Source: Haplodiscus bocki
Taxonomy: Eukaryota
Reading direction: 5' to 3'
Assembly: GCA_965655095.1 (NCBI GenBank)
Contig: OZ296649.1
Location: 29,202,001 to 29,266,000 of the forward strand
Length of the DNA stretch: 64,000 bases
This document shows, piece after piece, positions 3,001 to 49,545 of the stretch. How positions within the stretch are numbered: the first letter of the stretch is position 1; every line of letters begins with the position of its first letter. The translations under genes and the position numbers were made by a program. Below the pieces are notes generated by a model. The model ran no database searches and was not told the DNA's origin. It saw only the letters and a program-made list of their open reading frames with translations.

Positions 3001-3707
3001 AAAGCTGTTTTGAGAACTTCCTCTGATCTCTCTACTTGAAACAATACGTGTTTCTTGTTCAAATGCAGGGTCAAGTTTTGGCTGGGCTGGTTATCAGAGG
3101 CTACATTTGGTACTTTGGTTTTTTTTTTACGTCGTGTGTTTGACATCTCATGCCATGCCAAATAAAAAACAGTCCATTCCTTGGAAACGTGGTCTTTGTC
3201 GTTTTGGAAATGTACAATCGTTTTGATGGTTTCCGTACAAACCTTTTGGAAAAGGTTGGCCGATGCCACGAAAACGAAAACACAAACTTTCTTTTAAATT
3301 GACGTTTAGGCAGTCCAAAAGTATCGCTTTGATCTGTGCTCGGCTTGTTTCTCTCTTGTGAGAAGTTCGAGAGATCAATCCTCGTGAAGTAATACCTGTT
3401 GTGGTTGTGATATTAATTGTTTCTTCTATTTCAGCAACGTCAATTCCCTGCAGAACTTGAGAAGTGGCCTTGGTTAGTGTGTCTGAAGTTTTTTGGACAG
3501 AAAGACTTGAGAAAAAACTTTTTTTAATATTGATGCTTTTTTATCGTTTTTTTGTTGAAAAAAAGTTTTTTCTTCTGTTTTTGAGAAAAATCTAATTTTT
3601 ACCGAAGAGGGATGAGATCTGAAATTCCAGAAAATGTGAGATCTAAACTTTCCTGCAGCAACTCACGAAAAAGGAATAAGATCTAGGTTTTGGTGAGGAA
3701 TAGGCAA
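1..3707 (+). repeat. Segmental duplication, copy A (left end cut by the window)
   Basis: Position 1 matches 8788 (gtctcaccctaggattaaagg) and identity runs to 3707/12496 (...ggtgaggaataggcaa). I saw only a few substitutions and small indels by eye. The ORF track repeats at +8787 (548->9335). Confidence 0.97.
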
Positions 3708-7029: not shown

Positions 7030-7400
7030 AGCGTCAGATCTAAGGTTTCCTGGAGAAAACTCCTGAGAAAAGTTCAAATTTTGTCAAAACGGAATAAGAT
7101 TTAAATTTCCAGGGAGCGTGAGATCTGAGGTTTCCCGAGGAAATTTTGCGGTACTAGAATAAGATCCAAATTTCCAGAAAGCGTACGATCTAAGCTTTCC
7201 CGTAGAAATTTGCGAAAAAAGACTAAGATCTATATTTCCAGAGAGCCTAAGATCTCGGGTTTCCTGGACAAAATCTTCGGAAAGAAAACAAGATCTAATT
7301 TTGCCAAGACGGAATAATTTCTAAATTTCCAGGAAAGCTTAAGATCTGAGCTTTCCTGCAGAAGTTTGTGGGTAAAGATTAAGATGTCTTTTCCTAGAAA
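7030..7400 (+). repeat. Degenerate short-period tandem repeat with AGATCT core (agatctaaatttccagaaa-like)
   Basis: AGATCT/TTTCC motif recurs about every 25-30 bp. The same family occurs at 3590-3707, 7830-7935 and 12378-12830. Confidence 0.75.
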
Positions 7401-8787: not shown

Positions 8788-11700
8788 GTCTCACCCTAGG
8801 ATTAAAGGTTTGCTCTTTTACCCATGTGGAGTAGAAGATGTCGATCGGCAGCATGTAATATTGGCATGTATTGCTTAAGCTTCTGATAACGTTCGAAAAA
8901 ACTAGGTAAACTTTGTCTTGAATCGGGAGCTATTCTTAAGCAGTGGACTGTAAAATGACTGGGTTGAAGAAGGACAGCTGCAGAATACCGTATTTAATCC
9001 AATTACAATTGCGGCCGATTGAAACCTCGATTCGATTTCAGGCGGTTCCGAATGATTCTTGAAAAAAAAGACAGCGTTGAAAAATGATGACTTTTATAAG
9101 CCTCAACCAAGCCTCTGTTTCGAACAAATGCTGACCTCGAATCCCAAATGTTAAGCGATAGTCTTAAAATTGTAGACACTTGAAAAGATCTGCAAGGTCT
9201 AGCAAGATAAGAAGTTAAGCAATCGTAGGCAGCACGGAATAATTCTATGTCGAAGACTCTCTGTGAGTCGAATGAGTAGTCTTCCTTTTTTTCGACAAAT
9301 CCCGTTTGAATTAAGGCCGCGATATTTTGCGTCATGAGCGTTTCAAGTCACTTTGATGAAGTCAAAACCAGCTTTCTTTCTTTGTCTGAAATGTGAAAAC
9401 GATTCAAGCTGGTCAACACAATCTTATTACGATTGAAGTTTCTTTTTTGTGTGGCCGTTGCCAACTCAAGTTTGCTAGAAATTCTGAAGGTGGAAGCATG
9501 TTGTTTTTATCATTTCTGATATCCTAATTCGAACTTGTTTCATACGTCATATGTTTCCTTTTAACTTGAAGAAGTTCAGGAACCAAATTCCAAGAAACAA
9601 TTCAAAAATGGAACTTTCGCGGGATATTTTAAAGCCTGTTGAACTTTGATGGAGAATAATGGTTTTGCTTACTTGTTTCGGTGTTGGAGTCCCGCTGGTG
9701 GTTAACTTTTTAGAACAGGATTAAGTGAACTCTCGCGATGCAATTTTCTGGTCTTTTTTATCGAATTAGATGTTTCCGGAAATGAGAATGTTTTTGAAAA
9801 GCGCTTGAGCACAGAAATTGACGGATGGAAGAAGATACAGTTTCATGAAGGTCTCGTTTCCGGAACAGTTTTTTTCTGAGAGTATCTATGGGCCCAGAAA
9901 CTTGATCACCCAATAAAGTCCAATATTTAGGTTTTTCATGACATCTGCTGTGTTTCCCAAGAGCTTCGTTGCCAAGGCAAGCAAGTGTTTGTTCTGGGAG
10001 TGCCCAGAAGGTTCAAAGACTTCAATCTGGAAATTAGGGAACTGAGTGAAATTCTGTATGACAATCGGAGGAGTTTTGGGTTCCGTTTTGTTGGCGTTGG
10101 AAGGAAACTGTCGTGTGCCAATATCATCGATTCCGAAGATGGGTTACATTTGACGAAAAATGGACTTCGGCAACTGCGACCAATAATTTCCAAGAGATAA
10201 TGAATTGAAGTTCCTGTCATCTGTTCTCATCTAACAAAATGACAACTGATTGGTTTTGAATCCAGAATGCTAATTGATGTTTTTCATTTCAAGTGCTTCA
10301 TTTTCAAGTCGAAGATTGACTGGATTATTTGAAGTTGATTGGGATTCGGGGATAACCCTCATGGTGATCGTTTGTTCTCAATATTGAAATTTGCTGAGTT
10401 TTTATTGTTCATCTTTGAGAGTTCTGATATTTCAGCTGTATATAGCTGATGCCAAGTATAGCATGTTTTTTTTCGTTCAGTTGATATGCGTTTTTGGTAC
10501 CTATGTTTTATTGAATATTTTCACCTGACCTATTCACTTGGAAAATATTTGAATCCATTCCCAAACTCGCTCGGTAATTTAAATGTACCTTAGTAGTCGA
10601 ATTAATATCCCATTTTTGGGCTCTCGTTGATTAATTTCGAAAGTCTACTTATCTTTAAGTTTAATTCAAACGAGAGCCGCCGTAGTGGTGCTATGTTTTC
10701 CATCGATGGGGATTCAGAAACGGCTCAAAAATAAAATTGAAAATTTAAGAGAAAACAGTGATTCTGATACGAGGAGGCTAGCTTTGAGCTCAATTATAAC
10801 ATTATTAGACAAAAACAGGTACTCTCGAAACTGATTTCCAGAGGAAAATTTTAATCGATTTCCTCAAAATTCAAACTTTCATTCTGATCTCAGGCCATTG
10901 ATTTTCGGCTGTCCAGATGGTGTTCACAAAAAGGATTTCTGTTTGTTCAGACGGAGATTTTTTATCCGGGAATTTGTTTGATACTTTTTTTTCGAATGTT
11001 AAAAGGGAATTTTGGATGGGATTGTCAAAACAGCGTTCTACGAGTCCCGAGGAACAGTGTAGGTGTGACTATTCTTTAGAAAATTGATGTTCACGCGGAA
11101 TTGGCAATTTTGCGGAGAATTTCTACGGTTTGAGGGATTTGTTTTCTTTTCGTAGTATACTTTACCACGGATAATGACAAACAGCTCAAACACGGCGCTG
11201 ACCGTCATTCCGGCGCAAAAGTTTCAGTGAACCATATTCTCGCCATACCAAAAAATTCGTTGGCGGGACTCTTCTGGTGTTTTGGAAAAATGATGGTGTC
11301 GAAAAAAATCCACTAGTTTTGATTTCCGTCCGAGTTTACCTGGTCTCACAGTACCGAAAAGTGTTGCAACGGTCTTATGGCGTTTTCGAGTACTTCTCCG
11401 TGCTAGTTACAATTTTTAATTGCACGCTTGAAAATGATGTGCCCGGGAAAAAGTTGTCAATTCGATGTTATATGATAAAGTGACAAAAGTAGGCTTTTTC
11501 GTAAATTTGGTGAAATGAAACGGATGAAAAAAATGTACCTGAAACAGTGTTTTCGCAACTTCTCTTGTTTTTTACGATTCATCAAATGCATTCTCAAACC
11601 AAAAGTTCGGGGCGCGTTTGGTTCTTTCGCTCTTTACATCCTGGGTTTGAGATGCCTGGTCATATCGTAGTACTTATGAAAACAGCTTTTGTTTCTTGAG

Positions 11701-12496
11701 CAAAACAGAAACTTTCCAAAACGACGTTGAGTACGTTCCAAAAATGTCTTTTTAAGCTCTGGTGGGCTTGTTTCTTTGGTTATAACTAAAAAGCTGTTTT
11801 GAGAACTTCCTCTGATCTCTCTACTTGAAACAATACGTGTTTCTTGTTCAAATGCAGGGTCAAGTTTTGGCTGGGCTGGTTATCAGAGGCTACATTTGGT
11901 ACTTTGGTTTTTTTTTTACGTCGTGTGTTTGACATCTCATGCCATGCCAAATAAAAAACAGTCCATTCCTTGGAAACGTGGTCTTTGTCGTTTTGGAAAT
12001 GTACAATCGTTTTGATGGTTTCCGTACAAACCTTTTGGAAAAGGTTGGCCGATGCCACCAAAACGAAAACACAAACTTTCTTCTAAATTGACGTTTAGGC
12101 AGTCCAAAAGTATCGCTTTGATCTGTGCTCGGCTTGTTTCTCTCTTGTGAGAAGTTCGAGAGATCAATCCTCGTGAAGTAATACCTGTTGTGGTTGTGAT
12201 ATTAATTGTTTCTTCTATTTCAGCAACGTCAATTCCCTGCAGAACTTGAGAAGTGGCCTTGGTTAGTGTGTCTGAAGTTTTTTGGACAGAAAGACTTGAG
12301 AAAAAACTTTTTTTAATATTGATGCTTTTTTATCGTTTTTTTGTTGAAAAAAAGTTTTTTCTTCTGTTTTTGAGAAAAATCTAATTTTTACCGAAGAGGG
12401 ATGAGATCTGAAATTCCAGAAAATGTGAGATCTAAACTTTCCTGCAGCAACTCACGAAAAAGGAATAAGATCTAGGTTTTGGTGAGGAATAGGCAA
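8788..12496 (+). repeat. Segmental duplication, copy B
   Basis: Near-identical to 1-3707. Differences include caaataca/caattaca, ttcaagcgg/ttcaggcgg and a 3-bp insertion at ~10770. Confidence 0.97.
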
Positions 12497-12830
12497 TAAT
12501 TCTCCTGAAAGCATATAAAATGGAAGGTTACCTGCAGAAATTGGCGAAAAAAAAGAATGAGATCTATTTTCCAGAAAGCGTAAAATCTAAGCTTTCCAGC
12601 AAAAACTTGCGAAAGACTAAAATCTAAATTTCCAGAGAGCTCAAGATCTGGGTTTTCCTGGAGAAAATCTGCGGAAAGGGAACAAGATCTAATTTTGCCA
12701 TGACGAAATAATTTCTAAATTTCCAGGAAAAGTAAGATCCAAGCTTTCCAACAGAAATTTTCGAAAAAAGACTTAAAATATAAATTTCCAGAGAGCTTAA
12801 GATCTGAGAGACCAGAGAAAATTTGCAAAA
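12378..12830 (+). repeat. Degenerate AGATCT-core tandem repeat
   Basis: Same motif family as 7030-7400. Confidence 0.75.
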
Positions 12831-15800
12831 AATCCGCTGAGTACAAGAATTGGAAGACAGGTTTCAGGGATGTTCAGCGTTGTCTCAGGGGAAAATCAGG
12901 AATGATGAGAGCTGTTTAAGAAGGCTTCAGTGGGTATCAGCTCTGTTTCAAAGAAAATCAGCGCTGAAACAGCACTGATTCAGAGCTGATTATTTTGCTC
13001 TGGATTTTTGGGTTTTTAGCGCTGTTTCAGAGAAAATCAGCGCTGAAACAGCTCTGATTCAGCTCTGTTTCAGAGAAAATCAGCGCTGTTTCAGCGCTGA
13101 TTTTTAGCTCTGAACATTTCCGTTTTCAGCGCTGTTCAGAGCTGAATCAGCGCTGTTCAGAGATTTTCAGATAATTAACAGCGCTGAAACAGACCTGAAA
13201 ATATTCTGAATCAGAGCTGATCAGCGCTGAATGTCTCTGAGACGTCAACCCGGATATCATTGATCTTTATTAGATGGAACATCACTGGCTTCACTGTGGA
13301 AAAACATCGAAAACATGAATGAAACACTGATTGAACATCAAAGATTCATCAATGTTTACAATGTTCGATGTAGAAATGATGCATCATCGATTTTAATGAT
13401 GACAACATTAATGAGCCAGCAATGCTAACAATGAGTTTTCGACTGTGACCTTCACAAAAATTTTGAATGGCCACAACTTTGTGTTTCTTCATGATCTGGA
13501 AACTCTGATTTTTTTGTACGCCCATTTTATGTTACTTCAGGGCTAGCGGCGGTAAATCGGAAAACTGGAGGCGTTAACAGCGGTCCTTTTCGGCATAAAT
13601 GCGTCAACGGCGTTTTACTGTAAAAAATACCTGAGTTAGGGGTGGTTTCGCCACCATACTGGCAGAATAGTGGAGTATTTTCAGAAAACTTTGGATCAAT
13701 AACTTATTTTTCCAGCCTAAGGACAGTTGTTAAAACTCAGCTCTCAATAACCTGTTCTCAACTTGTTGAAGTCTGCACATTTGTCTTCCATGAATAATGT
13801 ATTGATACATGTTGGATCAACACTTAACACTTATCACATTTCAACTAAAAATAATTTTTAAAAAATGGTTTCTGAGACTCGCAGAAAAGAAAGAAAGTCT
13901 ACTGGATTTCAAAAAGATCAGAGAATGAGAATATTAAATCAGAAAAGGAAACACAAAAGGACTTGAGATTATCAAAGTGTCTGACTAAATTCACTGCGAA
14001 GCAGAAGTCATTCCTCATACAGGAACGAGACTAGACCAAAATCATTCTAGGAAATGAAAAATATTAGAAACTTTTGACAACTATCAGGAAGAGTAGACAG
14101 AAAAGTAAGAGATGGATTATCTCTGACTTGTCTGATTTCAACGCTAGACCAGAAGCGGCATAAGTCTGGGGTAGTCTAAATTAAACTCTGACATCTTCTC
14201 TCAGTTTGATATCAGTTGTCAGGACAGAGCATAACCTTAGTTAATCTGATTGTTCAAATCCGAAAAACAATGTTGAAGAAGGGGCTTTAGGCACTTAAAA
14301 TTTTAGAAGATGTTATTAATCAAGATGTAAAAATAATACTGAACATTTCAGCTAGAACATTTGGAAAACATCAACTGGAGATATGCAAAGCTTGATTGTA
14401 TGTGTGAGGCACATTAGGTTCAAAATCTGAGACTACGAAATGACCATATTCGTTGGAAAATTACTAAGCTTTGCCGCCGCTTTCCACTTCCCGAGAAATC
14501 AACGCTCGATTATGCTTTTATGATACTTTTGTCATTCTTGTGACAAACTGAAATGGTATGTAGATCAAGGTAATTGACCAACAGCAAAAACAGTAGTCAT
14601 GTCTCATAAATTAAAAAAGAACAGTTATCGATTTATTTTCTGGAGTTTTTCGCTTAAAACACCCACGAGTGGCAATATAACGTTTTTCCAAGTCTCAGCG
14701 CTTACCGTTTAGCATCTTGGGGGAACACCAGCTGTCGCAAGCTTCCACATGCGTCGGACAAACGTATAATATTACGTATGGTAACACTTGCAGCGGGTCA
14801 AACAGATGATATTTGCCCCTTTACCAGGATGGAAACAGCAACTAGAACTCTTACATGTGGCTCTACCTAGTAGATTTTTACGTTAGTAAAAGTCTAGATT
14901 TATGTATATGTATATATAAACAAGTGTAAAGTATAGCAAATCCATACAAAACACGAAATTGACAATCTAAAGGCGAACGTGCTCAAAGATACTGTGTTGG
15001 AATGTAACCAATTAGTTATCGGTGCTGCCTTTATCTTGTTGGCTACTAACTAGATATTACGTCAATTCATCCACTAATGGCGGTGCTAGACTCTTTAATT
15101 TAATGTTCAGTCAAAATAACATTTGTCCACTGCTATTTGACCAGCCAAAGATAAAAGTAGCGCAGTAAAGAGAGTCAACAACCGGTCTTTTTACCGGCTT
15201 AGGACCGAACAAAATGAATCAGTTGTTAAAGATGCTATACCAGTATGTAAAAATGGTGAATACGTCATAATTACATTTACTCATATCATACGACCTGAAG
15301 AGTACGTTTATGCAGTTAGAACAGTATTATACTTAAACCACTCCTACTTGAAGAATATTACGTCCCATCAAAATACAATCCTGTCAGGTGATCAAAAAAT
15401 GATGATAGTTATTAAACTGAAGCCTTAATGATGAAGGCAGGCAATGGGAAGTCAGAAAAGCAATCAGTGGCCTAACCAGTAAATCCAACCTAGGTTGTAT
15501 AATGATTTTGACCGATAACCAAAACCATGCAATATATACGTGTTTTATGACACCTTATCCAAAAAGAATGACCCCAATTGACGAGATAGCCACATGGGGC
15601 ACTACAATTCAGGGATGAACCTTTCTAAAACTCATATATTAAATATTCCACAATATATTGATACTCAGGTGTTATTTCAGAAAAAACGGTCAAAAAATTG
15701 CCATCGGTGTTTGACCGGGCTCTACGTTCAAACGGAAGTCGCTCGTAGTAATTTGACCTAAATGGGAATTTGGGCCTCGGATTAGTAATTATAACATCCT

Positions 15801-28980: not shown

Positions 28981-31338
28981 TGTCGCAGAGCATGTGTAGT
29001 TAAGAGAGAGAGCTAGAGATTGAAATTGGAAATAGTATATGGTTCTAATTTTCTCTCTCGCTTAGAGCGGTGTGTGACTAAACGCCATTAAGGCGGCTGC
29101 TTTCACACTTCAATTGTTTTGTTAATCAACAGAACAAGTCTCTAGAGATTTATCTCTCTATTTCCGTTGCCTTGCTAGCTCCGCGAACAAAGATTGCGTA
29201 AGTTCAATAGCATGGACTTCATGAGCGATGAAAGGATAATAGAAATGAAAATATTCATTTATTCAGTCAGCCGAGGCAATCCAATAAGTTCAAGTAAAAA
29301 TGAAAGACAAACATCGGAAATTGGAGACTGAGTCACGTCTCAGTGCAAAAATTGAAGGTGGAGGAAAGAGGGGACGTCAGTATCTATTCTTTTTTGCGTA
29401 CAGCAGTAGTCTCTTTCAAAAACATAAAAATTCTCTACATCCAACAAATTATTCTCTCACAGCAATTTTATCCCCTATTTGTAAATATTCCTGAAACTCG
29501 TGAGCTCAGAAGTAACGTTTCAAAAGTAACAACCTTTTCGGCAATTGAGGACAAAAAATGATCGAAGTTAGAATGCTGACAATTTTAAAAAAGAAATCTA
29601 GATATAATATCATAGATTATAAACTTTTACAAAAACATCGACAAAAATGAAATTCATCCAAAATGCAAATAAATTAAAGAATCCCAAAAAAAAACAAAAT
29701 GTACGTTAATCTCTAAAAAACTCCCAGCTAATGTTGTCTGGGACCTATTCGACACAAGGTAGAGTAATAATGACAAATTCTTTTCTTGTTTGGGCTAGGA
29801 AGGAGATTTTGTTTCTCCAACTTTTCCAGCACTATTTTCAAGGTTGGGTTCAGTTTTTGGTAATTTTATTTTTAGTTGTTTATGTTATATCATATAAAAA
29901 ACGTTATCTTTTAGTATACACTCAGTACTTGCATTGGCATAGTAACTGGTTCAAGCAGCTTAGTTTTCTGGAATTTTCCAAACCGTGAATAAATCACCGG
30001 GTTTATTGGCGAGGTTTGATTTGTTTCAAGTTTTGTCAAATGCTGATGTAAAGAGCTCGCTTTCTAGCGGCAACCCGGTCATGTTCTCTGAGTCCCTTTT
30101 TTCCAACCGAGATTTTTGTCTAGCGGATTTTATGGATGGGATTTTTTAGAATATTGTGAATGATCATAGAGATATACTCATTCCGAATTAGAATATTCTT
30201 TAACTAACGTATACCGTTGAGGGAGTTGGGTGATCTGCGCGTAGCTCTGGGACTCTCCTCTTGTGAATCTGACTTGCGAAGAAATTGAAAAGGAAGTTTA
30301 GAATCAATGCAAGGAATGGAATTGTTTGAATGTTGCAAAAGAGACGGTTTCTGCGTACTTAATCCGTATCCCGGAATTTAGAATAAATTCTAAATACCAC
30401 GGAAACAGACGAGGTGAGATTTGATCTATGTAACGTCAACTCTCTCTTCCTAGGGACTTCGTAGGGGTCGTGTTGTTCAAGATCCACTCATGCTTCAGAA
30501 ACGGAGCTTGTCAGCGGAATCCGCATACGCTAATGCCGAAGCAAGCGTTAGTGGACACTGATTAGACTCCAGCGGCAAGAGTATAGAATAAAAAAAATTG
30601 TGCAAATTAAGATTCACTCTTGTTGCAGAACCGAAGTTCATCCACGGAATCATCACACGATAATACCGAAGCTAGCGTTAGTGGACACCGTTTAGACTCC
30701 GGAGGCAAGAGTATGCAATTGGTAAGCAGAGAAGAGGGAATTTTTCTGAGTCAGGAAGAAAATATGACTTAGAATGTTTTTGCGAGATTGGAAAGAATTT
30801 GCGGCTAAGACAGAATTTGGAATTGTCTTCGAATATTTTTACAGAATTGGAGTTGGAATTAGAAAGTTTTAGTCCGAAAAGAAGAGACAAGAGGAATTGG
30901 ACTTACAAAATTTTTGTACAAAAGGCAAATGGAGAAGGGGAGTTGGACTTAAAATAATATGTCCAATTAAAAAAGGGAGAAGAAAACTAAAGTAAAGCAA
31001 GTCAGAACAGGAGTAAGGAGTCCCATCCGCTATACGGGGAAGCGAATAATGATCGAGTCCGTTTCCCAGATCGACCCCAAAAGAACAGCATGCTGCCGTT
31101 TCATGCAACCAATAGAAAAGAAGCTTGTACCAGCCATGGATTGGCAGCTGGCGCCAATAGAAAAATAGCTCCCGTTAGAATTTTTTTATAAAAATTATTT
31201 GTCCATTACCAATGGTTTCCCTATTCCATCAGCTTTCATAAGCTTTTTATATCCTGCATCAGCTCCTCAAAAGGTTAGTTTTAATTAATTAATCATGTTT
31301 AAATTATTTAACGTTTAAGCGTTATGTGTAACGCGATA
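28981..31338 (-). repeat. 3' LTR (2358 bp)
   Basis: tgtcgcagagcatgtgtagtt...gtaacgcgata aligns end to end with 46460-48825. Confidence 0.95.
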
Positions 31339-31350
31339 ACTCACCCCGCT
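31339..31350 (-). promoter_or_regulatory. Putative polypurine tract (AGCGGGGTGAGT)
   Basis: G-rich stretch immediately 5' of the 3' LTR on the minus strand; short and imperfect. Confidence 0.45.
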
Positions 31351-31379
31351 GAAAGGGAAGTGAAAATGATTGAGGGGCT

Positions 31380-32744
31380 CTATGGAAATGGGAAAAGGAG
31401 GGAAGTTTGGATGTGAGATTTTAGCACAGGAGGTTCGGAAAATTTGATCTTATAAAACTCGCACCAGCAATTAGAAAACTTCCAGTTTCGCTAAAGAGTT
31501 TAGAGTGAGGAACAAAGTTGTTGATGATGGTTGCTGCAACTGTTGTTTTTGTTGACATTGTGGGCTTCTTGTAGGCCAGGTCTTGATCAGGCTGAATTGA
31601 TTTCGTCCTTGTATTCAGCGGGTCCAGTTGATCACGGATAGCAATGTGGATGATCTTCGAGAAGGGCCATTTATTAGATAGTCGTAGTCACCAGGGAAGA
31701 GGGTGAATAAAATTGATGCACATTGGCTAGTAGCGGGTCCAATAACATAAGGGTAGAATTTGATGAAGAAATTGTATCCATGATGGTGAATCCTGAAGAT
31801 AGGACTACAAAAACTTGTGGTAGGTTCAATGAGGGGATCAGATGATGGTCGGGCCACTTTTGCAGAGTCGAATACAAACTTCACTGAGGAAGTTTCGAAA
31901 TTATAGCAACTGAATTGCCAGGTTCAAGCTGGCGAATTTTATCATATAAAAGTATTGCGAATGGATCCCCGCAGTGATGGATGTGTAGGTTGATATTTCA
32001 TCGGCAAACAATTTTTCCAGTTTGAAAATCCTTGATGTGAGGTTCTCTACCGTAGTTGAAGGAGCTTCCTGCGTGTTGGGTGTGGGCTGGAAATCGGCGT
32101 CTGCAGATTTGTTTGTTTTCGTTCTGGGTGGTCCCACAGCGCTCACCGGGTTAGAACGACGAAGTTCAGGTTCACCAGGGCCGGGAAGTGGGAAAGCAGA
32201 TGAAGTAGGGTTAAGGATAGGGTTAGGGCTAGGTTTAGGATTAGATAAAGGACTGGTACCGGAGTTTTCAACGGCAAAATCCTTGTTGGAGATTGTTTCA
32301 ACCGGGGAGAAGAGCAAGTAGCGCAACAAGGCAAAGTCATTTTGCAGTTGAAGGACAAGGAGTAGTAATGTCTGTCTGTCTGTCTAGATGTTCTGCCTTC
32401 AAGTGTTGGTTAAACTGTTGGATGGTTTTGTGAAAAGCCTGTAGACAATTCGGCTGATGTTGGATAGATGAAGACGAAAGAGCTGAAGATCCAGGAGTTA
32501 GTTGATGAGCTGCTGCATCCGGTTTAGACTGAGTTGTCGGCAGGAGAAGGACGAGGAGGAAATTGCCGTCAGTGATGTAGTGGTTAGTAGAAGGAGCATG
32601 AGAGGGAATGGTTTATGGAGGCATTCCGCAAATTAATTGAGCCAAGAGGAGACTCAGTGTAGTAGAGTTGCACAGCGAAAAAGGTGGGTCAGATGAAAAT
32701 TGATAATTAGGGAGGAAAGCTGGTGCAAGAGGTTTAAGCGACAT
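31380..32744 (-). pseudogene. TRAF-like protein: Pro/Ser-rich N-terminus, coiled coil and MATH (TRAF-C) domain, no RING or zinc fingers
   Basis: Translation across frameshifts: VENLTSRIFKLEKLF...LYDKIRQLEPGNSVAIISKLP/VKFVFDSAK...SFCSPIFRIHHHGYNFFIKFYPYVIGPATSQCASILFTLFPGDYDYL/WPFSKIIHIAIRDQLDP...IQPDQDLAYKKPT...NFVPHSKL...FLIAGASFI. This follows the TRAF MATH pattern (LIWKI, S.PF...GYK, G.YD.LL.WPF, DQ, F.KP). Confidence 0.85.
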
Positions 32745-33360: not shown

Positions 33361-35554
33361 TTAAGACAAATTTAAACAGGGGAAATTGGTGTCACGTGTC
33401 ACGACTTGGTTAAATTGAGCCGGACTCACAACTGGATAAATATGTTCCTCTTTTTTCTTAATATCATCTCTGATATCATGTAATTCTTCCTCATTACAAA
33501 AAAGTTTTTCTCTCTTCTTCCACCGCGGCGAGTGTAGGCTCGCGTGGATCATACATTGAAGTCAAAACTGACATGAGAAAAATGTTACATGAAGCGCTTA
33601 GAAGGGTCTTACGAACCCGAGTGATGCGCCAGTCACTTTAGTTATCTGTAAGTGGCGTATTACCATAACCACAACATCTATTATAAGTTTGAAGAATAAA
33701 AACACGGAGAAGTAGATTCCGCAGTGTTCAGAAACATATGCAACTGGTCCAAATGTATCCATGAACCTATCTTTGAAATAGCCAGGTGAGATCATGTTGT
33801 CTACATAGAAATTTGTTCGAGGAGCATAATAAGGAAAACTGTCCGGGTTCTTGATGTTGTTTGAAAAGACAATGAGTTTTTGCGTAAACTTTTTCAAAGC
33901 ATTTCAGGAGGCAGCACTGGTCAAGATACTGTCCCAAAAATCACTGAGTTCACTTCTAGTGTACATTCCAGCATCTTGAGATCCAGGGAAAGAATGAACT
34001 AACACTGGTGAAACGTCTTTGGGCCCGAACACAGCGGGTCTATCCTGATGTACAATGCCAGGTGTTAGTGTATACCATGAGTCTTTTTGATCCATGTCAA
34101 ATTGAAAGAGATTTTTGATCCGGTCAGTAAAATTTTGTAGGTTAGCCGTCGGGTGTGTTTGCCGTGTAATAGGGTCGACAAATTGAATCTGGCTTTCGTA
34201 GAGGGCCGGGATCCGATCGTAACACCGGTTCGTCGTATGAAGTGGTGAAGGAACTGGTGGGCAGTGATACAACCAAGCTTCCACCAGTTTCCAGAAACAT
34301 TGCCCGGTTTTCGGTGAGCATATATCCTTCGAGGCGTGGGTTTTCAAGATATAGCATCAAAATAGTAAGAATCTGTGTTCGTTCTTGCTCACCATGATTT
34401 TTCAAGAGTTGTATCTCAGAAGTTTAAAGTAATCGTGGGCTCTGGAAGAAGAGATTGTCCAATTTTGTTCCCATGTGCTTCTCATAGTCCATATTGAGCT
34501 ACATGTTTTCATCGCTTGTTTTTTGAAATGTGTGTTTCGGATCATATGGATACAGTTGGGCCAATCCGTTGTTCTTAGTGGGTGCTATACACTGTAAGAG
34601 TTAGGTGACACCATTCCGTTCATTACCAAAATTCCTTCCGGATCTCAGGTAGAAGCCTCCACTAATGATTGCCACATAGAGTGAATCCTAATTAATAAGA
34701 TAAATATCCGTAGGCTTTCCACAATGTTTTTGAGGATTGTTTTAAACTTCAAATACAATTCTTTTTGTTGAATCTGGTCCACTGATGATGTAAACTTTTG
34801 TTCCTTGTTTCACCATGTTACCCTCTTCGGTTCGGAGCTTTGATAACACACAGTTATCAGGGTAGTCCGATATATAGGCGTAGGGGTCCAATGAAGTTGT
34901 TTCACAACCTAAATCTTCCAGTGCACATGGCAGTACTTGAGTATAGTCGGATAAGATCTTCCCAGTTGACATTCTGACTTTTAGTGTTGTTCGTTGCATA
35001 TGAGGGAGGAAGATATCACGGGTAATCCAACCACGCGAGGTGCAGTGATTTCTCTTAGTGTCGGTCGTAGAACCGTCGGTGATTACAATGGGATTCTTGG
35101 TATCATATTCAACTCCCAAAAACTGATCGGCCAGATAGATCATTTTTCCTTTCGCCAGAGATCGGCATTGTTCTGGTGAGACCACTAGGTCAACAGTAAT
35201 TCCAGGTACAGTGTGATCGATGCTGCTGTGGTCGTTATGTCCCCAGTGCCACTTCTCGCGTTGATGTTGTATTCCACACTTTGTTGTGTTAAGCTTTTTT
35301 CGGAAGTGCTCAGTGTAGAGAATGATTTTCGTTTGACTAATTTCCAATTCCTCCGGTGTAATGTGGCATTGTCGTACCTGGTTGAGAGCATAGAGAGTGT
35401 TTTCTGTCATTGCGCCGCAGTCAAACTGAGACACTTTAAGATTCTTGGCAACCTGCTCTGCGTCTAGAACTAAAATCTGAACAATCTCGGAACAAAACAC
35501 GAGGACTTGAAAGAAAAATAGTGTCATCGCCGAACTTTTCAGCTGAAGCTCCAT
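33361..35554 (-). pseudogene. env: Envelope glycoprotein, chuvirus-G-like (class III fusogen-type), disrupted
   Basis: Hydrophobic signal-like N-terminus; VSQFDC...YALNQVRQC, KC.IQHQRE.WH.GHNDHS, SPEQC, LPCALEDLGC, HCGKP, QERTQIL...NP, LYHCPPV...CYDRIP...FVDPITR, SWY, GMYT..EL; C-terminal TM GIYFSVFLFFKLIIDVVVMVI and a charged tail. Spread over ORFs 34742..35554, 34142..34405, 33904..34347, 33598..33897 and 33361..33552. Confidence 0.8.
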
Positions 35555-35857
35555 CTCTTGTATTTTACTTCAGAGGGAATAACTATTGAAAGAAAAGAAA
35601 ATAGCGCCTTCACGGGGTTTCCCTGTGGAAGTTCACTCTATTTTTTCAGAGGAATAGCTATTGACAAATGCCGTAATATCAAACTGGCGCTTTGTGGGCA
35701 CTAACACAAAGTAGGAGCAAATATTTTACAGTAGTAGCTCCACTACGAATAAAACGCTGTCGAGATTTTTATAAAGGGTGCCGGAAGAAAACCGGTATCA
35801 CCAAAAAAGTGCCAATTTGAATGTGTAAAGATAACTCAGCTCAACCATTGGATTTCT

Positions 35858-38797: not shown

Positions 38798-40695
38798 TTA
38801 GAGTTTATAGCCTTGTCTAGTGCGGGTTTGAAGCACAGACTGTGGGTCAGGATGATCAGGTTGGGAACGATTGTATTTAGGTTCCTTGTTTTTTGATTCT
38901 CGGCTATTAGTAATGAATTGTTGTATTCGGGTTAATGGTCCACTAGGAGGTTCCGTTCGTGAAGTGGATGAGATGAGATGAGGCTGCGAATTATCAGGAT
39001 TTATTGGCATTGTTGGTGACAGAACATGAGGAGAATTTACTCCAGAGTCACTGCTAGTATTATTGACCCGTTTCTGTGGAAGTGTACTCGGGGCTGTACG
39101 AAGAGGTTCAATAGGAAATGGGAGCGAGTTTTCCATGCAAGGTTGTTGGGAGTTGCTTGGCTTCCAGATTCGCTGCTCCATGAATCGTTCCTAAAAATCG
39201 TCATGACGTCGGTCCATCAGCACAAATTCTCCGATCATCGGAGGTAGTGTTTCTTCTTTAGGATAGTACTCAACTAAATGATTTCGATGCACTGTTTTGA
39301 GAATTGTAGGATCTTTGTCATCTTACGTTTGATAAGTTGTGTTAGTTACTCGTTTTGTTACTGTAAAGGGTCCGAGACGTCTCTGTTGAAATTTTTGACT
39401 CTTAGAAAGATCTTGGCGAACTTTTTGTCCTATCTCTAATAGTTGTACCAACTTGAATCGTTTTTTGTAGGCATACGATCTAGCTGTTTGTTCTCGACAT
39501 CCTTCGAAAGTAGCGGAATAGATGCTTTTGAAATCAATTTCTCGTTCCAGGAGTGCGTGTGAAAGTTGTGGTCGAAGAAGATTGTCTAATAGTTGATTCT
39601 TTAGGTTGTTCTCACCATGTGAATAAAATAGCAGGTCTCTGCAGAATTTAGAGCAACAATGTTTAAGTTTATTGCAGTAAAGTCCAAGTTTCAAAGACAT
39701 AGGGATCTGAGGTTTTGTACCTAAAACTATTTCGTAAGGTGTTTTCCCAGTAGTGTAGTTAACGCTTGAGTTGTGGGCAAAAGCGAATTTCGGTGCTAAA
39801 GAAGACCAAGTGTTTCCAGCGTCGTTCAAGAACTCCCGCCAATAACGGGCGATGTGTTCGTTCTGGGTTCCAATTTTGCCATCAGTCCAAGGCGAGTGTG
39901 CTGTTCTAGGTCGCAGAGTGATTCCCATTTCTTTTGTCCAGTTAATGAATTCGGTATTGATGAAAGCCGCACCTCGGTCATGCACAATAGATTGAGGAAT
40001 TCCGAATGAACGGATCCATTTCTCAACAGCAGAGATAATAACCTGAGCACCAGTGTTAGTAACTGGGTATACCAATAAAAAGAGAAAAAAAGCATCAATA
40101 ATCAAGAGACAGTGAAGATTCCGGTTACTTGGGGGCTGAAGAGGTCCCTTGTGATCAATATGAGTTGTTCGGAACGGGACTGTCTCGTGTTGCCATTCTT
40201 CCAGTGGTATTTCGTTCCTGTGTTTAGGTTTTGGTTTGTTGTTTTGGCTAGTCAGACAATCAGCAGTGAGTGTACATATCCAGTTGAACATACCAGGCCA
40301 GTAGTAGAATCGTTTTGCATTGTTGTAGGTTTTTCAAGCTCCCATGTGTCCGTCCATTTCGTTGTAGTGTCCAAGTCTGAAACGCGCTAGGAAGAGTGAT
40401 AAAGGTAAGCAAATTTGCAGGTTTTCATCATCTAGTTTTTCAGTAGGTCCGTTGTAACATAGAAGTTGTGCTTCTTCTTCAATTAGAAGTCAGTCTAATT
40501 TTTGGCAGTATCGAAGTAAGCTTTTGGACTGTTGTATTTCGGGGACTTTGTTATGGGTGAAATTCCTTTACGTAGCCAGGATCGAGCAGTACCAAGAACT
40601 GGGTCTTTGATTTGTTCGGCCAGGATCGTGGAGACATCAAGATCAACTGCTTTAGAAACATCATCCAGTTTAGCAATTAAGGATTTAGTATCCAA
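38798..40695 (-). pseudogene. Integrase (HHCC zinc domain, DDE core, GPY/F module, Pro/Ser-rich tail)
   Basis: EQIKDPVL; HYNEMDGHMG...YYWPGMF...CLTS; HIDHKGP, VHDRGAAF, WTDGKIG (catalytic E lost in this copy); LGPFTVTKRV; VHRNHL. Confidence 0.93.
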
Positions 40696-41289: not shown

Positions 41290-41920
41290 TCGATTTAGGA
41301 TATCCGGGAAAGCAAGATTTGATCTCGGAGTCCAGATATTTTTAAGTTTTTGGAATTTTGTTATGATTACTTGATACCTGAAAACCGATGTGATAGTTGT
41401 CCTTTTGTCCCCATAGATAAAAAATCGGTTTGTGATCACAATAGAGGTATATTGGAAAAGGAAATCCAATGATTTAGTGTTCATATGTTTGTAAAGCTGA
41501 AACTATTCCACATAGTTCTCTATGGAGAGAAGACATCTTCTGTTCGGCTTTGTCGAAAATTCTTGAGATGAAGGAGAATATTCGTTTTCCCTCAGGAAAT
41601 TGTTGAATTAGGATAAAACCTGTTCCAGTATTTGACGAGTCCACATGAATGTGAAAAGTATAATCAGTTGAAAGTACAGCAAGGATCGTATCTTCACTAA
41701 TTCTGTCTTTGATTGATTGGAATAGTTTTTCATAATCCTGTGTCCAGTGGAAAGGAGTCGTGTCCTTAATCAAGTAGTAGAAGGGCTGACTGTCCACATG
41801 AAGGTTCCTAATATCGCAACTGCAGAATCAGAGGCCTCCTAAAATTTTCATAACATCTCGTTGACTTTCTGGTTATTTGAGTTTTTTCAAGTCTTTCACT
41901 CGTTTTGCATTAGGTTGGAT
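41290..41920 (-). pseudogene. RT connection and Ty3/Gypsy-type RNase H
   Basis: FHWTQD...FHIHVDSSNTGTGFILIQ...AEQKMSSLHRELCGIV...NLAFPDILNR. Confidence 0.9.
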
Positions 41921-42720
41921 TCAGTCTGGGGATATAACGTGACCAAGAAATTCACCTTTCTTTAGAAAAAATAATGTTTTGTCAGGGGCTGCCTTGAGAC
42001 CTGCTTTCCTAAGAAGTGTATCGTACTCGTTGATGACCGTGAACATCTCATTCTTGTTTTGTGACTGCATTATTGAATCGTCAATGTAGGTGATTGCTTG
42101 TTTCCTCCCGATGAGAGTGTCAAAAAGTATTATCATTAGTCGGCTGAAGAAATTTGGGAGCCCGCACAAGCCATAAAATCCACGTGTGTAGGTGCACTGT
42201 TTTCCAGCGATTATGGAACTAGTTAGTTTTTGTGTTTCCGGGCTCAACGGGACTTGATGATAGTCACAAGAGAGATCACTTACCGAGAAGACCTTGCGAT
42301 TGACCCTAGTCATGATCATCAGCGCTGGTTCCAAGGGCCAGGAGTAATTTGTAAGATCAGTCACTGAATTACGATATCTTTTGTCAATCACTAACTTCAC
42401 ATAGTCCGTTTTAGGCATTAGGATAATCATTGACAAATAACGATCCCATCTCGTCGTCGTCACCCATCTCACGAATGATATCTGCGTCCTTTGTTTGTGT
42501 GAGTAGTTTTTTTTTCTTTCAAGTGTAAGGGAACTTTGTTAGGTCGTTGTCGTTTCAGTTCAACGCTAGGTGTCAGTGTGACGTGGAACTTCTGGCGGGT
42601 TTTGCCCACATCAAACATATGTTGAGAATAAACATCCCGCGCGTCGACTAACATATCAATCAGGTGAATCATTTCTTCATCTGTAAAGTCTGAGTACTGA
42701 AAATCGAAATCTTTAACGTA
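41921..42720 (-). pseudogene. Reverse transcriptase
   Basis: KLVID, DLSCDYHQVPL, GFYGLCGLPNFF, YIDD (42077-42088), FLGHVIS. Confidence 0.96.
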
Positions 42721-42959
42721 GTTTATGAGTTCTTTTGGCTGATATTGAAGATAGTGATCAATGAGTCGGTTGTTGTGATCTTTCTCACGGAGGACTGGAA
42801 ATTACTTGTCACAGGTTGGTTGGCAGGACTTGGAAACCTTAGTGAAGTCTGTTTTTAACTCACGGTTTTCTAGGAGGAATTCTTCACTGTGTTGTTCTAT
42901 CTCGTCGTCAGCACAAAACTCAGCGTCTCCTTCAGCGGACAGCGCGTGGACTCTATTTT

Positions 42960-43400
42960 CCTCAAGAGTGTATACTACAATTTGCACGTCAGCGTTAGCG
43001 AAGATATCTCGGAGTAGTTTCACAACTTCTTGCTAGTTCATTTGATATAGTGCACAACCAAGTTTGGTTATAGCAAGAGTAAAACCGCCATTCGTACTTG
43101 CATGAATCTTCAATGCTTCCAATGTTTTAGACAGTGTCGATAGGTTGGGTTTATCGCAAAAACTTTCTTTAGTCACCAGATTGTAGATATAACGCTTTCC
43201 TAGTGAATCCCAGAAAAGGAAGACTTGTCCCATGAACAAATTTTGCTTTCGGGCAAGTTGATCTGAGACCAGGAATTCTCTAGGGTAGAAAATCAGCAAA
43301 ACTTTCACTCATTCGAGCAACCGCAGATATGCAATGTCCAATTGAATTAGGTTGTTGGAGGATCGAACTTTCTGTACCATAGATAATCTGCAGAAATTCG
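42960..43400 (-). pseudogene. TARG1/OARD1(C6orf130)-like macrodomain (ADP-ribose glycohydrolase) within pol
   Basis: SIGHCISAVARMS..FA / RYIYNLVTK..KPNLSTLSKTLEALKIH..NG..LAITKLGCALYQMN*QEV..IFANADVQIVVYTL is collinear with OARD1 as recalled (SLAHCISEDCRMG / RYIYYLITK..KPTYENLQKSLEAMKSH..LSMPRIGCGLDRLQWENV..VFEATDIKITVYTL). Confidence 0.9.
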
Positions 43401-43798
43401 TCACCGCTCTGAGCTGGAACTGTCGGGTGTAAGAGAAAACAGTCATTAAACCGTTCATCAGTAGAGATGATAGCGTTCGTTAACTCGTAAGGACTTCGTA
43501 TTTGGTACTTGGGCTCATCTTGATTAACCACTTCCAGAGAAGAGAATCCAATCCGTCCCTTTGGTAATGTAATTTGGTGGTTCTCATCGTTTTCCATCAG
43601 TATCGGAAGATAACGTTCATATCGGGTGCATAAAGTGTTTATGAAGGATGGGCCAGTAGCCACAGCATGTCGATTTGGTTGAAAAGTAGAACCTGGTGGG
43701 AAGTGTGTATGAGTGTCTGCGGGACAGTACTTCCAACAACGGGCACTTTTAGCGTCAATACACATCGTATAGGGGGTTCTAACTGTCACAATTTGTGA

Positions 43799-44281
43799 TT
43801 AGTGAGGATGGGACTTTTTTTGATGAAACCTGCCATAGAGGATTGACTTGGGAGGATTCTTTATTTCAATTCCACGCAGATCAAAAAGAATTCCAGAAAC
43901 TTGTTTTTGACAGAAGTCCATGCCAAGAAGATTCTGAGTTCTCATCTCAGTGATCCATACTGTTAGTGGGAAGATAATTTGTCCATCTGGATCATAACTA
44001 AAAGTGATAGTTGCATAGCCAATCATCGGAACTGTTTGTCCCGAGTATGTCGTTGTTACTTTGGTACTTTTTTGTATAGTAATTGGGAGCTGTAACTGGC
44101 AGATTTCCCAAAACGTTCGGTAAATGATGATTGAGCAAGAAGCTCCTGTATCTAACGTGAATTCGATCTCTAAACCACTATCTTTTTGAATGTCTCCGGT
44201 GGCGAAGTAAGAGACATTGAGGCTAAGCCTCGAGTTTTGAGATTTATCGGTGTTCGAGTTCGGAGACCTTAGTAGTTTAAC
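43799..44281 (-). pseudogene. Aspartic protease (start of pol)
   Basis: FTLDTGASCSII active site and NLLGMDF motif. Confidence 0.95.
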
Positions 44282-45700
44282 AGGCAAAGGTCTGACACTT
44301 CGTTAATGGTATCATCGGTTGTGGTGAAGCGAACCACATTAGATGATGTCTGATTTTTGTTCTGCGGAAACTTTTATTCATAGAGCGTAAAACTAGTCGT
44401 AGATCGATTGTCAGATCTGCGGAAGGCAGAGTAGTTATGTTGATCACTTCTTGGTTGGCGATAGGAGTTATTTTGTGAGAAGTCTCTTCTTTGAGCCGAT
44501 GAAGAACGAGAAACATTTCCATTGTTTCGCCAGTTCCCATTAGATTTGTTGAAAAACTCATTTCGAGATCGATTTCCCTGATTTCTATTGAATGTTTGGT
44601 TTCGGCGTTGATCAGATGATCTTCTGTTGTTCGGGTGATTCTTCTCATTTTCGAAGCTGGGCCTTGGAGGGAAATTTCGATAAGATGTGGGAAAATTCCT
44701 TGTGGGTCCATCATTATTGTAATTTTGATTTCTTTTTTGGAAATCCTGGCCTCTAATCCATTGCTCTTCTCCATGATCTGGTCCCCCTTTTTTGTTGTAA
44801 TCCTGAGTAAACGTGACTTTCCTTTCGGTAGATCTTTCGTTTTCAGTTCGTTTTAATTCTTCGTCCCGTATCTTCTTGCGGCACCAACTTGGGGTATGTC
44901 CGTTTGTGCGGCAGTAATTGCAAAATCGTGTTGCATTCTGTCTTCCTTTTTGGTTTGGGTCTACTGTTCGAGAATTTTCTTCTACAGCAATGACTGGGTG
45001 TTATTATAGTTGCAATCGTAGATTCTTCATCTTTTGACCCAAGGTGGCCATCTGAGCCCTGGTTTGTTCTTCGTCATTTAAAAAGTTGGAAGGAACTTGG
45101 AATGATACATCTTTTTGTATCATCCTGGTAGAAAGTCATTCCACGTAACAATCGGGTTTTCCATCAGATATTCTTATGCTTTTTGCGGGAGGTACCTAGG
45201 TCGTAATCCTTTTAGCGAGTAGTCGCTGCATCTTTGTCTTAATTGTCGTCCTTGAGCTGCTCTTTCAGCACCATGATCTGCTGCGGCACTTCCCTCCATA
45301 TCGTATCGCCACCTTTTATCCACGGTTCTTCTAATGCGGTGTAGGAAGTTCCGAATTTCTTCTCCATCTCCTCTAATACAATGGTCCACTTCCATTCGGT
45401 ATCGGAATTTGTTTCGTCCATCTGAAAATCTAGTGATGAAATTTGTTCAAACATTCTCCCAGGTTGTTGCGTTGGTATTATTGTCCTCGTACCACTCAGC
45501 GGCTGGTCCTCGGAGCAAAGAGGAAAACAGCGCTTTCTTCCTGAAAGTGTAGTTTGCCAGTTCACCAGCATCTGCAGGTGCGTCTCCAAGAACAAAGTTG
45601 ATTCAAGTAATTGGATGAAAGATTCGGCGTCCTGATTGGGATCTGTGCCAGAAAATTTGTCGATGGCTAGATCAAGATAAGCAAGATGAGTATTAGCCAT
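44269..45700 (-). pseudogene. gag: Gag (capsid, CCHC nucleocapsid, N/Q/R-rich tail)
   Basis: KFSGTDPNQDAESFI, LRGPAAEWY, TWENV..FITRF capsid motifs; zinc knuckle CNYCRTNGHTPSWC at 44881-44922. Confidence 0.93.
44275..44281 (-). promoter_or_regulatory. Putative -1 ribosomal frameshift site G_UUA_AAC at the gag/pol overlap
   Basis: gag frame ends ...CTG TTA AAC TAC TAA; the pol frame CCT GTT AAA CTA is -1 relative to it. Confidence 0.7.
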
Positions 45701-46459: not shown

Positions 46460-48825
46460 TGTTGCAATGCATGTGTAGTTAAGAGAGAGAGCTAGAGATT
46501 GAGATTGGAAATAGTATTTGGTTCTAAATTTCTCTCTCGCGTAGAGTGGTGTGTGACTAAACGCCATTAAGGCGGCTGCTTTCGCACTTCAATTGTTTTG
46601 TTAATCAACAGAACAAAGAACAAGTCTCTAGAAATTTATCTCTCTATGTCCGTTGCCTTGCTAGCTCCGCGAACAAAGATTGCGTAAGTTCAATAGCATG
46701 GACTTCAGGAGCGATGAAAGGATAATAGGAAATGAAATTATTCAATTATTCAGTCAGCCGAAGAAATCCAATAAGTTCAAGTAAAAATGAAAGAGAAACA
46801 GCGCAATTTGGAAACTGAGTCACGTCTCAGTGCAAAAATTGAAGGTGGAGGAAAGAGGGGACGTCAGTATCTATTCTTTTTTGCGTACAGCAGTAGTCTC
46901 TTTCAAAAACATAAAAATTCTCTAGATCCAACAAATTATTCTCTCACAGCAATTTTATCCCCTTTTTGTAACTATTCCTGAAACTCGTCAGCTTAAAAAA
47001 ACTTTTTCAAAAATAACAGTCTTAACAGCAATTGAGGACAAAAGATGATCGATATTAGAATGGTGACATTTTTAAAATAGAAATCTAGAAATAATATCAT
47101 AGATGAAAATTTTTTACAAAAAACTTCGACATAGATGAAATCCATCCAAAATGCCAATAAATTAAAGAATCCCAAAAAAAACAAAATGTACGTTAATCTC
47201 TAAAAAACTCCCAGTTAATGTTGTCTGGGACCTATTCGACACAAGGTAGAGTAATATTGACAAACTCTTTTCTTGTTTGGGCTAGGAAGGAGACTTTGTT
47301 TCGCCAACTTTTCCAGCACTATTTTCAAGGTTGGGTTCAATTTTTGGTAATTTTATTTTTAGTTGTTTATGTTATGTCATATAAAAAAAGTTATCTTTTA
47401 GTATACACTCAGTACTTGCATCAGTACCATAGTAACTGGTTCAAGCAGCTTAGTTTTCCGGAATTTTCCAAACCGTGAATAAATCAGCAGTTTCTTGGCG
47501 AGGTTTTATTTGCTTCAAGTTTTGTCAAATGCTGATGTAAAGAGCTCGCTTTCTAGCGGCAACCCGGTCATGTTCTCTGAGTCCCTTTTTTCCAACCGAG
47601 ATTTTTGTCTAGCGGATTTTATGGATGGGATTTTTTAGAATATTGTGAATGATCATAGAGATATACTCATTCCGAATTAGAATATTCTTTAACTAACGTA
47701 TACCGTTGAGGGAGTTGGGTGATCTGCGCGTAGCTCTGGGACTCTCCTCTTGTGAATCTGACTTGCGAAGAAATTGAAAAGGAAGTTTAGAATCAATGCA
47801 AGGAATGGAATTGTTTGAATGTTGCAAAAGAGACGGTTTCTGCGTACTTAATCCGTATCCCGGAATTTAGAATAAATTCTAAATACCACGGAAACAGACG
47901 AGGTGAGATTTGATCTATGTAACGTCAACTCTCTCTTCCTAGGGACTTCGTAGGGGTCGTGTTGTTCAAGATCCACTCATGCTTCAGAAACGGAGCTTGT
48001 CAGCGGAATCCGCATACGCTAATGCCGAAGCAAGCGTTAGTGGACACTGATTAGACTCCAGCGGCAAGAGTATAGAATAAAAAAAATTGTGCAAATTAAG
48101 ATTCACTCTTGTTGCAGAACCGAAGTTCATCCACGGAATCATCACACGATAATACCGAAGCTAGCGTTAGTGGACACCGTTTAGACTCCGGAGGCAAGAG
48201 TATGCAATTGGTAAGCAGAGAAGAGGGAATTTTTCTGAGTCAGGAAGAAAATGGGACTTAGAATGTTTTTGCGAGATTGGAAAGAATTTGCGGCTAAGAC
48301 AGAATTTGGAATTGTCTTCGAAAATTTTTACAGAATTGGAGTTGGAATTAGAAAGTTTTAGTCCGAAAAGAAGAGACAAGAGGAATTGGACTTACAAAAT
48401 TTTTGTACAAAAGGCAAATGGAGAAGGGGAGTTGGACTTAAAATAATATGTCCAATTAAAAAAGGGAGAAGAAAACTAAAGTAAAGCAAGTCAGAACAGG
48501 AGTAAGGAGTCCCTTCCGCTAATCGGGAAAGCGAATAATGATCAAGTCCGTTTCCCAGATCGACTCCAAAATAACAACATGCTGCCGTTTCATGCAATCA
48601 ATAGGGAAAAAGCTTGTACCAACCATGGTTGGCAGCTGGAGCCAATAGGAAAAAAGCTTCCGTTAGAAGTTTCTTGTAAATATATTTGTGCAACTCCAAT
48701 AGTTACTTAATTCCATCAGCCTTTATATTCTTTTTATATCTTGCATCAGCTCGTCAAAAGGTTAGTTTTAAATGTTTAATCATGTTTCAATTAATTAACG
48801 TTTAAGCGTTATGTGTAACGCGATA
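46460..48825 (-). repeat. 5' LTR (2366 bp)
   Basis: tgttgcaatgcatgtgtagtt...gtaacgcgata; adjacent PBS. Confidence 0.95.
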
Positions 48826-49545
48826 TAAACACAGGAAAAATTCGACGGTTTGATGTGCAAACAAAGTTTTTTGAACGATACTGAATACGAACTTCCTGGG
48901 AAAAAAACCAAACGCGGACTAGAGAAATTCTAAACACTAGAAACACATGAAGTACTCCAGGAATGTAATTTTAAAAGAATATTGAGAAAAATTTGTAGTT
49001 TCTTATCATGAATCGAAAACCCTTTATTGGCAAAAACTAGAAGAGGTTCAAAGAACAAAGTTCATAATACAATCTCAACCTCATTTCTTAAGAGTTGAAG
49101 CTGACAGTACAATAATGAAAACAAACAAGAAAACATACAGCGGAAACCCAGTCTTTCAGAGTCACGACCTTTCTTCAAATCGCAACAAGGAGTAGAAATT
49201 AATAAACTTCTTTTCTTTTCATGCAACAGTAGTATTTTGCTGTTTAAAAATGAATGTTTTATTGGAAGTTATAAGAAAATAGATTGCTTAGTTTTACAAC
49301 AAATGCCAAATTTCTCAAAAATGTATTAGTTTTGATAAAAAAATAGTAAAGGAACTAGAAAAACCTATTTCATCTAAGTTTGCATTAGATGTAGGTCCAG
49401 TACGTAAAACAACTAAAAGATCAACATCCATACCTTCGAAGAAACAAAAAACTTTCAGAAATAACATGCATTTTATTTGGAAGACGATGACCACATTGCA
49501 TTGGATTTCACGGGCGAAACTACAATTTTTACTGTAATACCAACA
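48826..49545 (+). pseudogene. C-terminal part of the minor-capsid (penton)-like gene interrupted by the LTR element
   Basis: GTRKPISSKFALDVGP...FYLEDDDHIALDFTGETTIFTVI (49471-49540); its N-terminus lies at 28678-28820. Confidence 0.55.

Follow-up and report, generated by a model that had tools for sequence, protein, structure and literature searches.

The stretch of DNA analysed here (64 kb, hereafter the window) carries an env-bearing LTR element of Ty3/gypsy type, 19.9 kb long and on the minus strand, in which a macrodomain of the TARG1/OARD1 type lies within Pol between the protease and the reverse transcriptase (RT). Every gene of this element is broken and the macrodomain copy in the window is dead. 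The macrodomain in Pol is a trait of the element family, and in unbroken copies it is predicted to be an active ADP-ribosyl hydrolase, an assignment that we consider likely.

The macrodomain occupies 42964..43396 (minus strand, as are all coordinates given for the element). A preliminary description of this DNA had placed it across three ORF pieces interrupted by two stops and a frameshift, and the pieces were found as located: the end of ORF 43798-43283, ORF 43308-43036 and ORF 43032-42805. Two in-frame TAG stops inside the domain are evident from the ORF translations (43280..43282 and 43033..43035), and the frameshift lies at about 43230..43255, where the tblastn frames change and the exact base is not fixed. 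When the domain was read as a 155-aa stretch with X at the three breaks, chains of human C6orf130/OARD1 were the sole significant matches in PDB (five of the seven listed sequences, E 4.5e-17 to 6.7e-17), the remaining two sequences being unrelated (E 0.2–0.3); the match to human TARG1 covers residues 22-152 (E 4.5e-17). Weak matches were also obtained to DarG models of NCBIfam (E 6.6e-8) and PADLOC (E 8.1e-11). Identity with full-length DarG was rejected, as the NCBIfam score of 32–49 bits is far below the full-length cut-off of 250 and the match is confined to the macro part. Pfam Macro matched neither the window copy nor the unbroken relative P0009, and the family may be unannotated because this model fails to detect it. 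The expectation that profiles would recognise a macrodomain was thus borne out in part, by the TARG1 structures and DarG profiles, with Pfam Macro silent. Alignment to TARG1 also agreed with the earlier reading of the active site: the Lys of the LVTK motif, equivalent to catalytic K84, is kept (codon 43168..43170), and the position of catalytic D125 is occupied by Tyr (43045..43047).

The 5′ LTR (46460..48833) has TG...CA ends, and 3 nt beyond it lies a primer-binding-like site that starts with TGG; the 3′ LTR (28981..31343) is 94.5% identical to it. The pair is a mosaic, with about 800 bp at 99–100% identity and the remainder at 85–97%, possibly owing to gene conversion or to an origin as a recombinant of two copies. 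K2P over the whole pair is 0.05, a value that does not give a straightforward age. No target-site duplication was found at the ends of the element. Troyka LTR elements are described as having CG...CG ends and a 3-bp duplication (PMC12440569), and membership in that group was rejected since a CG-ended reading with a matching 3-bp flank is absent at the termini.

Between the LTRs the order protease, RT, RNase H, integrase is that of Ty3/gypsy elements (Metaviridae); the RT itself was placed in a 10-row tree built without named Metaviridae references, in which it sits on a long branch with 26–32% identity to the others. A broken gag (44272..45700), located by tblastn of P0164, on which Pfam recognises Retrotrans_gag, lies in a frame separate from pol, an arrangement found both in the window copy and in L001. 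It is followed by an aspartic protease ORF piece (43802..44302, Pfam Asp_protease_2, E 3.5e-5), a spacer of ~160 aa (43400..43900), the macrodomain, a linker (42740..42963) and broken RT and RNase H (41477..42740, Pfam RVT_1, E 4e-12, and RT_RNaseH_2, E 1e-20), with the Pfam RT match spanning 42538-41924. Placement of the macrodomain between protease and RT was therefore confirmed by Pfam matches on both flanks, and can be refined by the spacer on its 5′ side and the linker on its 3′ side. This linker is acidic (22 Asp/Glu per 74 aa in P0009) and begins with a possible protease site: a His-centred motif with hydrophobic neighbours, VHAL in 44 of 105 relatives, follows the macrodomain and resembles a Gag motif, and by the preferences of Ty3 it may be a point of cleavage. 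The spacer was considered as a dUTPase-like domain, an idea that found no support, given a model pLDDT below 50, Atlas matches under 0.9 without a common family, and a profile comparison with two other gypsy spacers that returned a probability of 0.1%.

Downstream of RNase H, an insert of ~195 aa (41400-40730), for which a Pfam scan gave no match of note, precedes a broken integrase with H2C2, core and SH3-type tail (38801..40549; Pfam and tblastn). The 3.2 kb from integrase to env (38800-35570) contains several broken ORFs, and for ORF 36545-36195 an Atlas search gave weak, mixed helical-repeat matches and nothing else. The broken env-like gene (33600..35569) encodes a fusion glycoprotein of the Monjiviricetes (chuvirus-like) type (PF24664, E 1e-7 and 3e-9), here within a gypsy-type element. 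Anakin elements are of BEL/Pao type. Anakin is likewise an LTR element with a chuvirus glycoprotein (PMC12440569, PMC7642597), so that a Monjiviricetes-type env is common to both, whereas the Pol of the window element matches gypsy-type Pfam models and the element carries macro and TRAF domains in addition. The latter domain belongs to an accessory ORF, likewise broken, that lies past env and ahead of the 3′ LTR (31370..32100); it matches the TRAF-type MATH domain in Pfam (TRAF-mep_MATH, E 9e-6) and TRAF1-4 in PDB (E 0.004–0.4), and its product is possibly an immune-signalling decoy. Together, the TARG1 and TRAF domains suggest that the host is an animal.

That the macrodomain belongs to the family and not just to this copy was established from its relatives. 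A search among longer proteins yielded 291 relatives from 691 candidates, the best 120 of which share 61–85% identity and include clusters of 854, 617 and 498 members. P0009 is an unbroken ORF of 1827 aa comprising protease, spacer, macrodomain, RT, RNase H and integrase, and together with seven further protease-to-integrase ORFs it shows the domain to be in frame with pol in unbroken copies. Among the 185 family proteins besides P0009, macrodomain and RT share an ORF in 37, protease and macrodomain in 40, and protease through integrase in the seven already mentioned. In every one of the 102 relatives spanning both flanks, no fewer than 139 of the 144 macro positions are kept; this sample was mostly recovered with the macrodomain as query and would hence be poor in copies without it. 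At the DNA level, all 30 bins of the internal region of the element were covered by contigs of two DNA runs (one organism, one study), with 56,590 and 51,582 matching contig records per run, most of them 80–95% alike; depth there does not equate to copy number, and the coverage fits a large repeated family. The TRAF-type MATH ORF is probably a trait of the whole family too, because many divergent contigs cover its bins. No relative of the family was present in the viral contigs searched, and the metagenome contigs searched contained a single locus, 1.4 kb long, which stops short of the macrodomain. Word-limited searches of proteins of 1004-3198 aa gave 4 of 166 candidates, all of this family, and, with P0292 as query, 3 of 151 candidates.

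TARG1 acts through Lys84, which attacks C1′′ of ADP-ribose, and Asp125, which resolves the adduct (PMC6397177, PMC9411070), whereas DarG uses the Lys only (PMC9411070, PMC8120803). The catalytic Lys84 position is kept in 133 of 147 aligned relatives and the Asp125 position in 138 of 147; both residues occur together in 127 of the 144 relatives in which the two sites are covered, in all eight protease-to-integrase ORFs and, among ORFs of at least 1000 aa, in 19 of 20, and the Tyr of the window copy is thus not the family state. Retention within the family (Lys 0.92, Asp 0.95) barely exceeds that of the median column (0.90), so these counts alone show the family state and not selection. As judged from sequence, better evidence is the retention of motifs in more distant relatives: in P0188 and P0191, at 41–46% identity, the HCIS loop is kept, as are the Thr-Lys pair and the GxGLD loop, and the distal-ribose and phosphate-loop residues are conserved in subfamilies at 73–75% and 41–46% identity. 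The published TARG1 pattern TKx(30,35)Px[IL]GxGxD (PMC6397177) is matched exactly by 64 of the best 120 of the 291 relatives; the window copy does not fit it. One divergent member, P0222, has an open frame in which the HCIS and GCGLD motifs are lost, and represents either a pseudo-enzyme subfamily or a decayed copy.

This pattern of retention bears on whether the domain does anything for the element. It could be a passenger, a captured piece of a host gene tolerated without benefit at the protease-RT junction, and its divergence, faster than that of RT (72–78% as against mostly 90–96% identity between subfamilies), is what such a passenger would show. The macrodomain diverges, however, much as do the protease (79–82%) and spacer (72–78%) and less than the RNase H-integrase insert (55–60%), none of the 102 spanning relatives has lost it, and its active-site residues are selectively kept, all of which makes a passenger very improbable.

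A model of P0002, a natural relative, has a macro region of pLDDT 81–98, with an underlying alignment that took in 33 distant TARG1-like rows, and its nearest fold is TARG1 (4j5s, rmsd 1.9 A, TM 0.91). DarG comes next in the ranking, with domains of MacroD and of alphaviruses a long way below; Poa1p also matches, more distantly, and the matches include invertebrate virus proteins such as Kadipiro virus VP8 (33% identity). By sequence and by fold, then, the domain is nearest to TARG1, in agreement with the earlier assignment to this class and not to the MacroD/coronavirus type; identity with MacroD-like or viral Mac1 domains was rejected on the lack of any such sequence match and on fold ranks of 38 and lower (11–15% identity). 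Human TARG1/OARD1/C6orf130 (4J5S, 4J5R, 2EEE) shares with the family the fold, 36% identity, the Lys84/Asp125 dyad and the HCIS and GCGLD-type loops. The family domain differs from it in being embedded in a retroelement Pol, in short insertions, one set close to the first strand and one ahead of the catalytic strand, and at two positions considered below. The DarG macrodomain (5M3E, 5M3I; rank 9-11, 21–23% identity) belongs to the same clade and fold and has the catalytic Lys as well, but DarG is described as having a C-terminal extension and no Lys/Asp dyad (PMC9411070), whereas the element family has the dyad. No DarT-like partner was found among the Pfam-scanned ORF pieces of the window. 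Viral Mac1/X domains of corona- and alphaviruses provide a parallel, as macrodomains in viral polyproteins directed against host ADP-ribosylation (PMC6397177), but they are of the MacroD-like clade with other chemistry.

The two positions concern the predicted adenine-binding pocket, which is altered family-wide, a feature that escaped the preliminary description. The position of D20 is Asp in none of 141 aligned relatives as against 88 of 105 other TARG1-like domains, and that of I44 is Phe in 140 of 142 relatives as against one of the 105; 17 of these other domains likewise have no Asp at D20, and the D20 and I44 contacts lie outside the published pattern. Such a pocket could have lowered or changed activity. 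One outcome would be a module that binds but catalyses weakly or not at all, anchoring Pol or the pre-integration complex at ADP-ribosylated chromatin or at sites of repair, or accommodating another nucleotide in the reshaped pocket; the remodelled pocket, the loss of catalytic motifs in P0222 and the position of the domain after integrase, that of a chromodomain, in several other gypsy lineages are consistent with this. We nonetheless regard it as quite unlikely, since the dyad is conserved across subfamilies that are 41–46% identical, and the domain lies far from integrase here, from which processing would separate it.

We give about an even chance to the reading that the domain is packaged and, as a hydrolase, frees the RNA or cDNA of the element itself from ADP-ribose, with its activity, release and substrate all predicted. 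Known TARG1 substrates are Glu/Asp-linked ADP-ribose and thymidine-linked ADP-ribose in DNA (PMC6397177, PMC9411070), and a 2026 preprint reports removal of uracil-N3- and guanine-N1-linked ADP-ribose from RNA by TARG1, alone among four enzymes, since MACROD2, PARG and ARH3 failed on these base-linked forms (10.64898/2026.03.31.715305). Made at the low level of Pol, as the different frames of gag and pol suggest, the domain would be packaged with Pol and travel with RT, from which it may be cut free or to which it may stay tethered. RT would stall at a template base that bears ADP-ribose, and a few enzyme molecules within the particle would then rescue replication. A small number of copies packaged with RT would be better matched to repairing the template or cDNA of the element than to acting in bulk in the cell. 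The surface of the domain is less favourable to this reading: with a median net charge of +2, as against +4 in other TARG1-like domains, the family domain is the less basic, and at the R126 position, part of the RNA-binding surface, it mostly has Gln, so the case for a nucleic-acid substrate is weakened.

The same surface is in keeping with an eraser for proteins, which would take Glu/Asp-linked ADP-ribose off Gag and Pol or off host signalling proteins in the manner of viral Mac1 and, together with the TRAF-like protein, damp innate signalling. TARG1 acts on protein substrates, and the TRAF-type MATH domain and env are in the same element; set against this, expression at Pol level, as judged from the gag and pol frames, would supply few molecules for cellular proteins, and overall we think a protein eraser unlikely. 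Processing of a small metabolite (O-acetyl-ADP-ribose or ADP-ribose-1′′-phosphate) in the particle or cell deserves hardly any credence: TARG1/OARD1 does deacylate O-acetyl-ADP-ribose (PMC8120803) and Poa1p is among the more distant fold matches, but a benefit to the retroelement is not evident and host enzymes do the same job.

Whichever the substrate of the putative hydrolase, the arrangement is less unique than had been implied, as TARG1-type domains were found in other gypsy Pols. Among 1.84 billion representatives searched, 3430 matched at E ≤ 0.001, and 63 of the best 150 matches (those of at least 195 aa, with five family fragments excluded) were scanned with Pfam. Four of the 63 carry RT, RNase H or integrase domains (P0273, P0292, P0316 and P0324), and a fifth case, P0221, groups with the gypsy Pol P0349. 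In all, five other gypsy lineages carry a TARG1-type domain in frame within Pol at other positions, either between RNase H and integrase (P0324, Athalia rosae XP_048515211, with two copies, and P0328) or after integrase (P0292/P0347/P0348, P0316 and P0349); P0258 may be a further case of protease followed by macrodomain. The RT-RNase H of these carriers is 26–32% identical to that of the window family, and P0292, P0316, P0328 and P0347 keep the Asp at D20 that the window family does not have. The macrodomains of the window family form one group in a 130-row tree from a quick search (support 93). The sister position of P0219/P0221 had support of 90 in this tree and became an open fork in a later quick tree. 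A constraint grouping 15 element-borne domains apart from 26 others was not rejected (p-AU 0.26, likewise from a quick tree), and repeated capture and shuffling between elements both fit the macrodomain tree.

Outside Pol, TARG1-type domains were seen fused in eukaryotic DNA ligase III-like proteins, before BRCT (P0237, P0247, P0257, P0272 and P0327), and P0297 combines PHD, a TARG1-type macrodomain and a GDSL esterase in one protein, a layout like that of LINE ORF1 proteins.

A wider proposal, possible and in our view rather doubtful, is that gypsy elements have repeatedly armed Pol with TARG1-type hydrolases, at three positions, since the RNA or cDNA of retroelements is tagged by animal hosts with ADP-ribose on its bases, in a conflict like that of DarT and DarG; in the env-bearing family a reshaped-pocket eraser and a TRAF-like decoy would then make up an anti-immunity kit. 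The source and purpose of base-linked ADP-ribose marks in animals are given as an open question in the preprint cited above (10.64898/2026.03.31.715305), and silencing of L1 has been tied to ADP-ribosylation by a different route, via SIRT6 and KAP1 (PMC4695847). A captured macrodomain in a reverse-transcribing element is already known: some fish endogenous retroviruses encode macro domain proteins (review PMC4977317, citing Basta et al. 2009). These teleost retroviruses are LTR elements as well, but are epsilon-like with macro as additional ORFs (PMC4977317), while here the domain is TARG1-type and inside a Ty3/gypsy-type Pol. The TARG1 class, the altered pocket, the recurrence among gypsy elements and the TRAF-like companion are what add interest. 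Literature on macrodomains and retroelements gave no report of TARG1-type domains in gypsy Pol, a weak negative with subscription papers and Repbase notes thinly covered and supplementary tables outside its scope; the available portions of a survey of chromatin-TE fusions (10.1101/2021.11.30.470311) and of the Troyka paper (PMC12440569) make no mention of such a domain. A TARG1-type domain kept beside RT here, and elsewhere in Pol in five other gypsy lineages, suggests that nucleic acid or protein of retroelements is a natural target of this class. If the domain removes ADP-ribose, this would point to a use of such tags by hosts against mobile DNA; macrodomain counter-defence, a theme of RNA viruses and phages, would then extend to LTR retrotransposons and involve another class of enzyme. 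The families supply small domains for direct assay.

No tRNA genes were found anywhere in the 64 kb. Two segments, 1-3707 and 8788-12496, form a direct repeat of 3.7 kb at 99.8% identity, 8.8 kb apart; these may be LTRs of an element that is much younger, or may have arisen by recent duplication. Degenerate arrays of 65-bp and 11/43-bp repeats with palindromic CAGCGCTG cores, partly inverted, were noted at 6488-7400 and 12550-13260.
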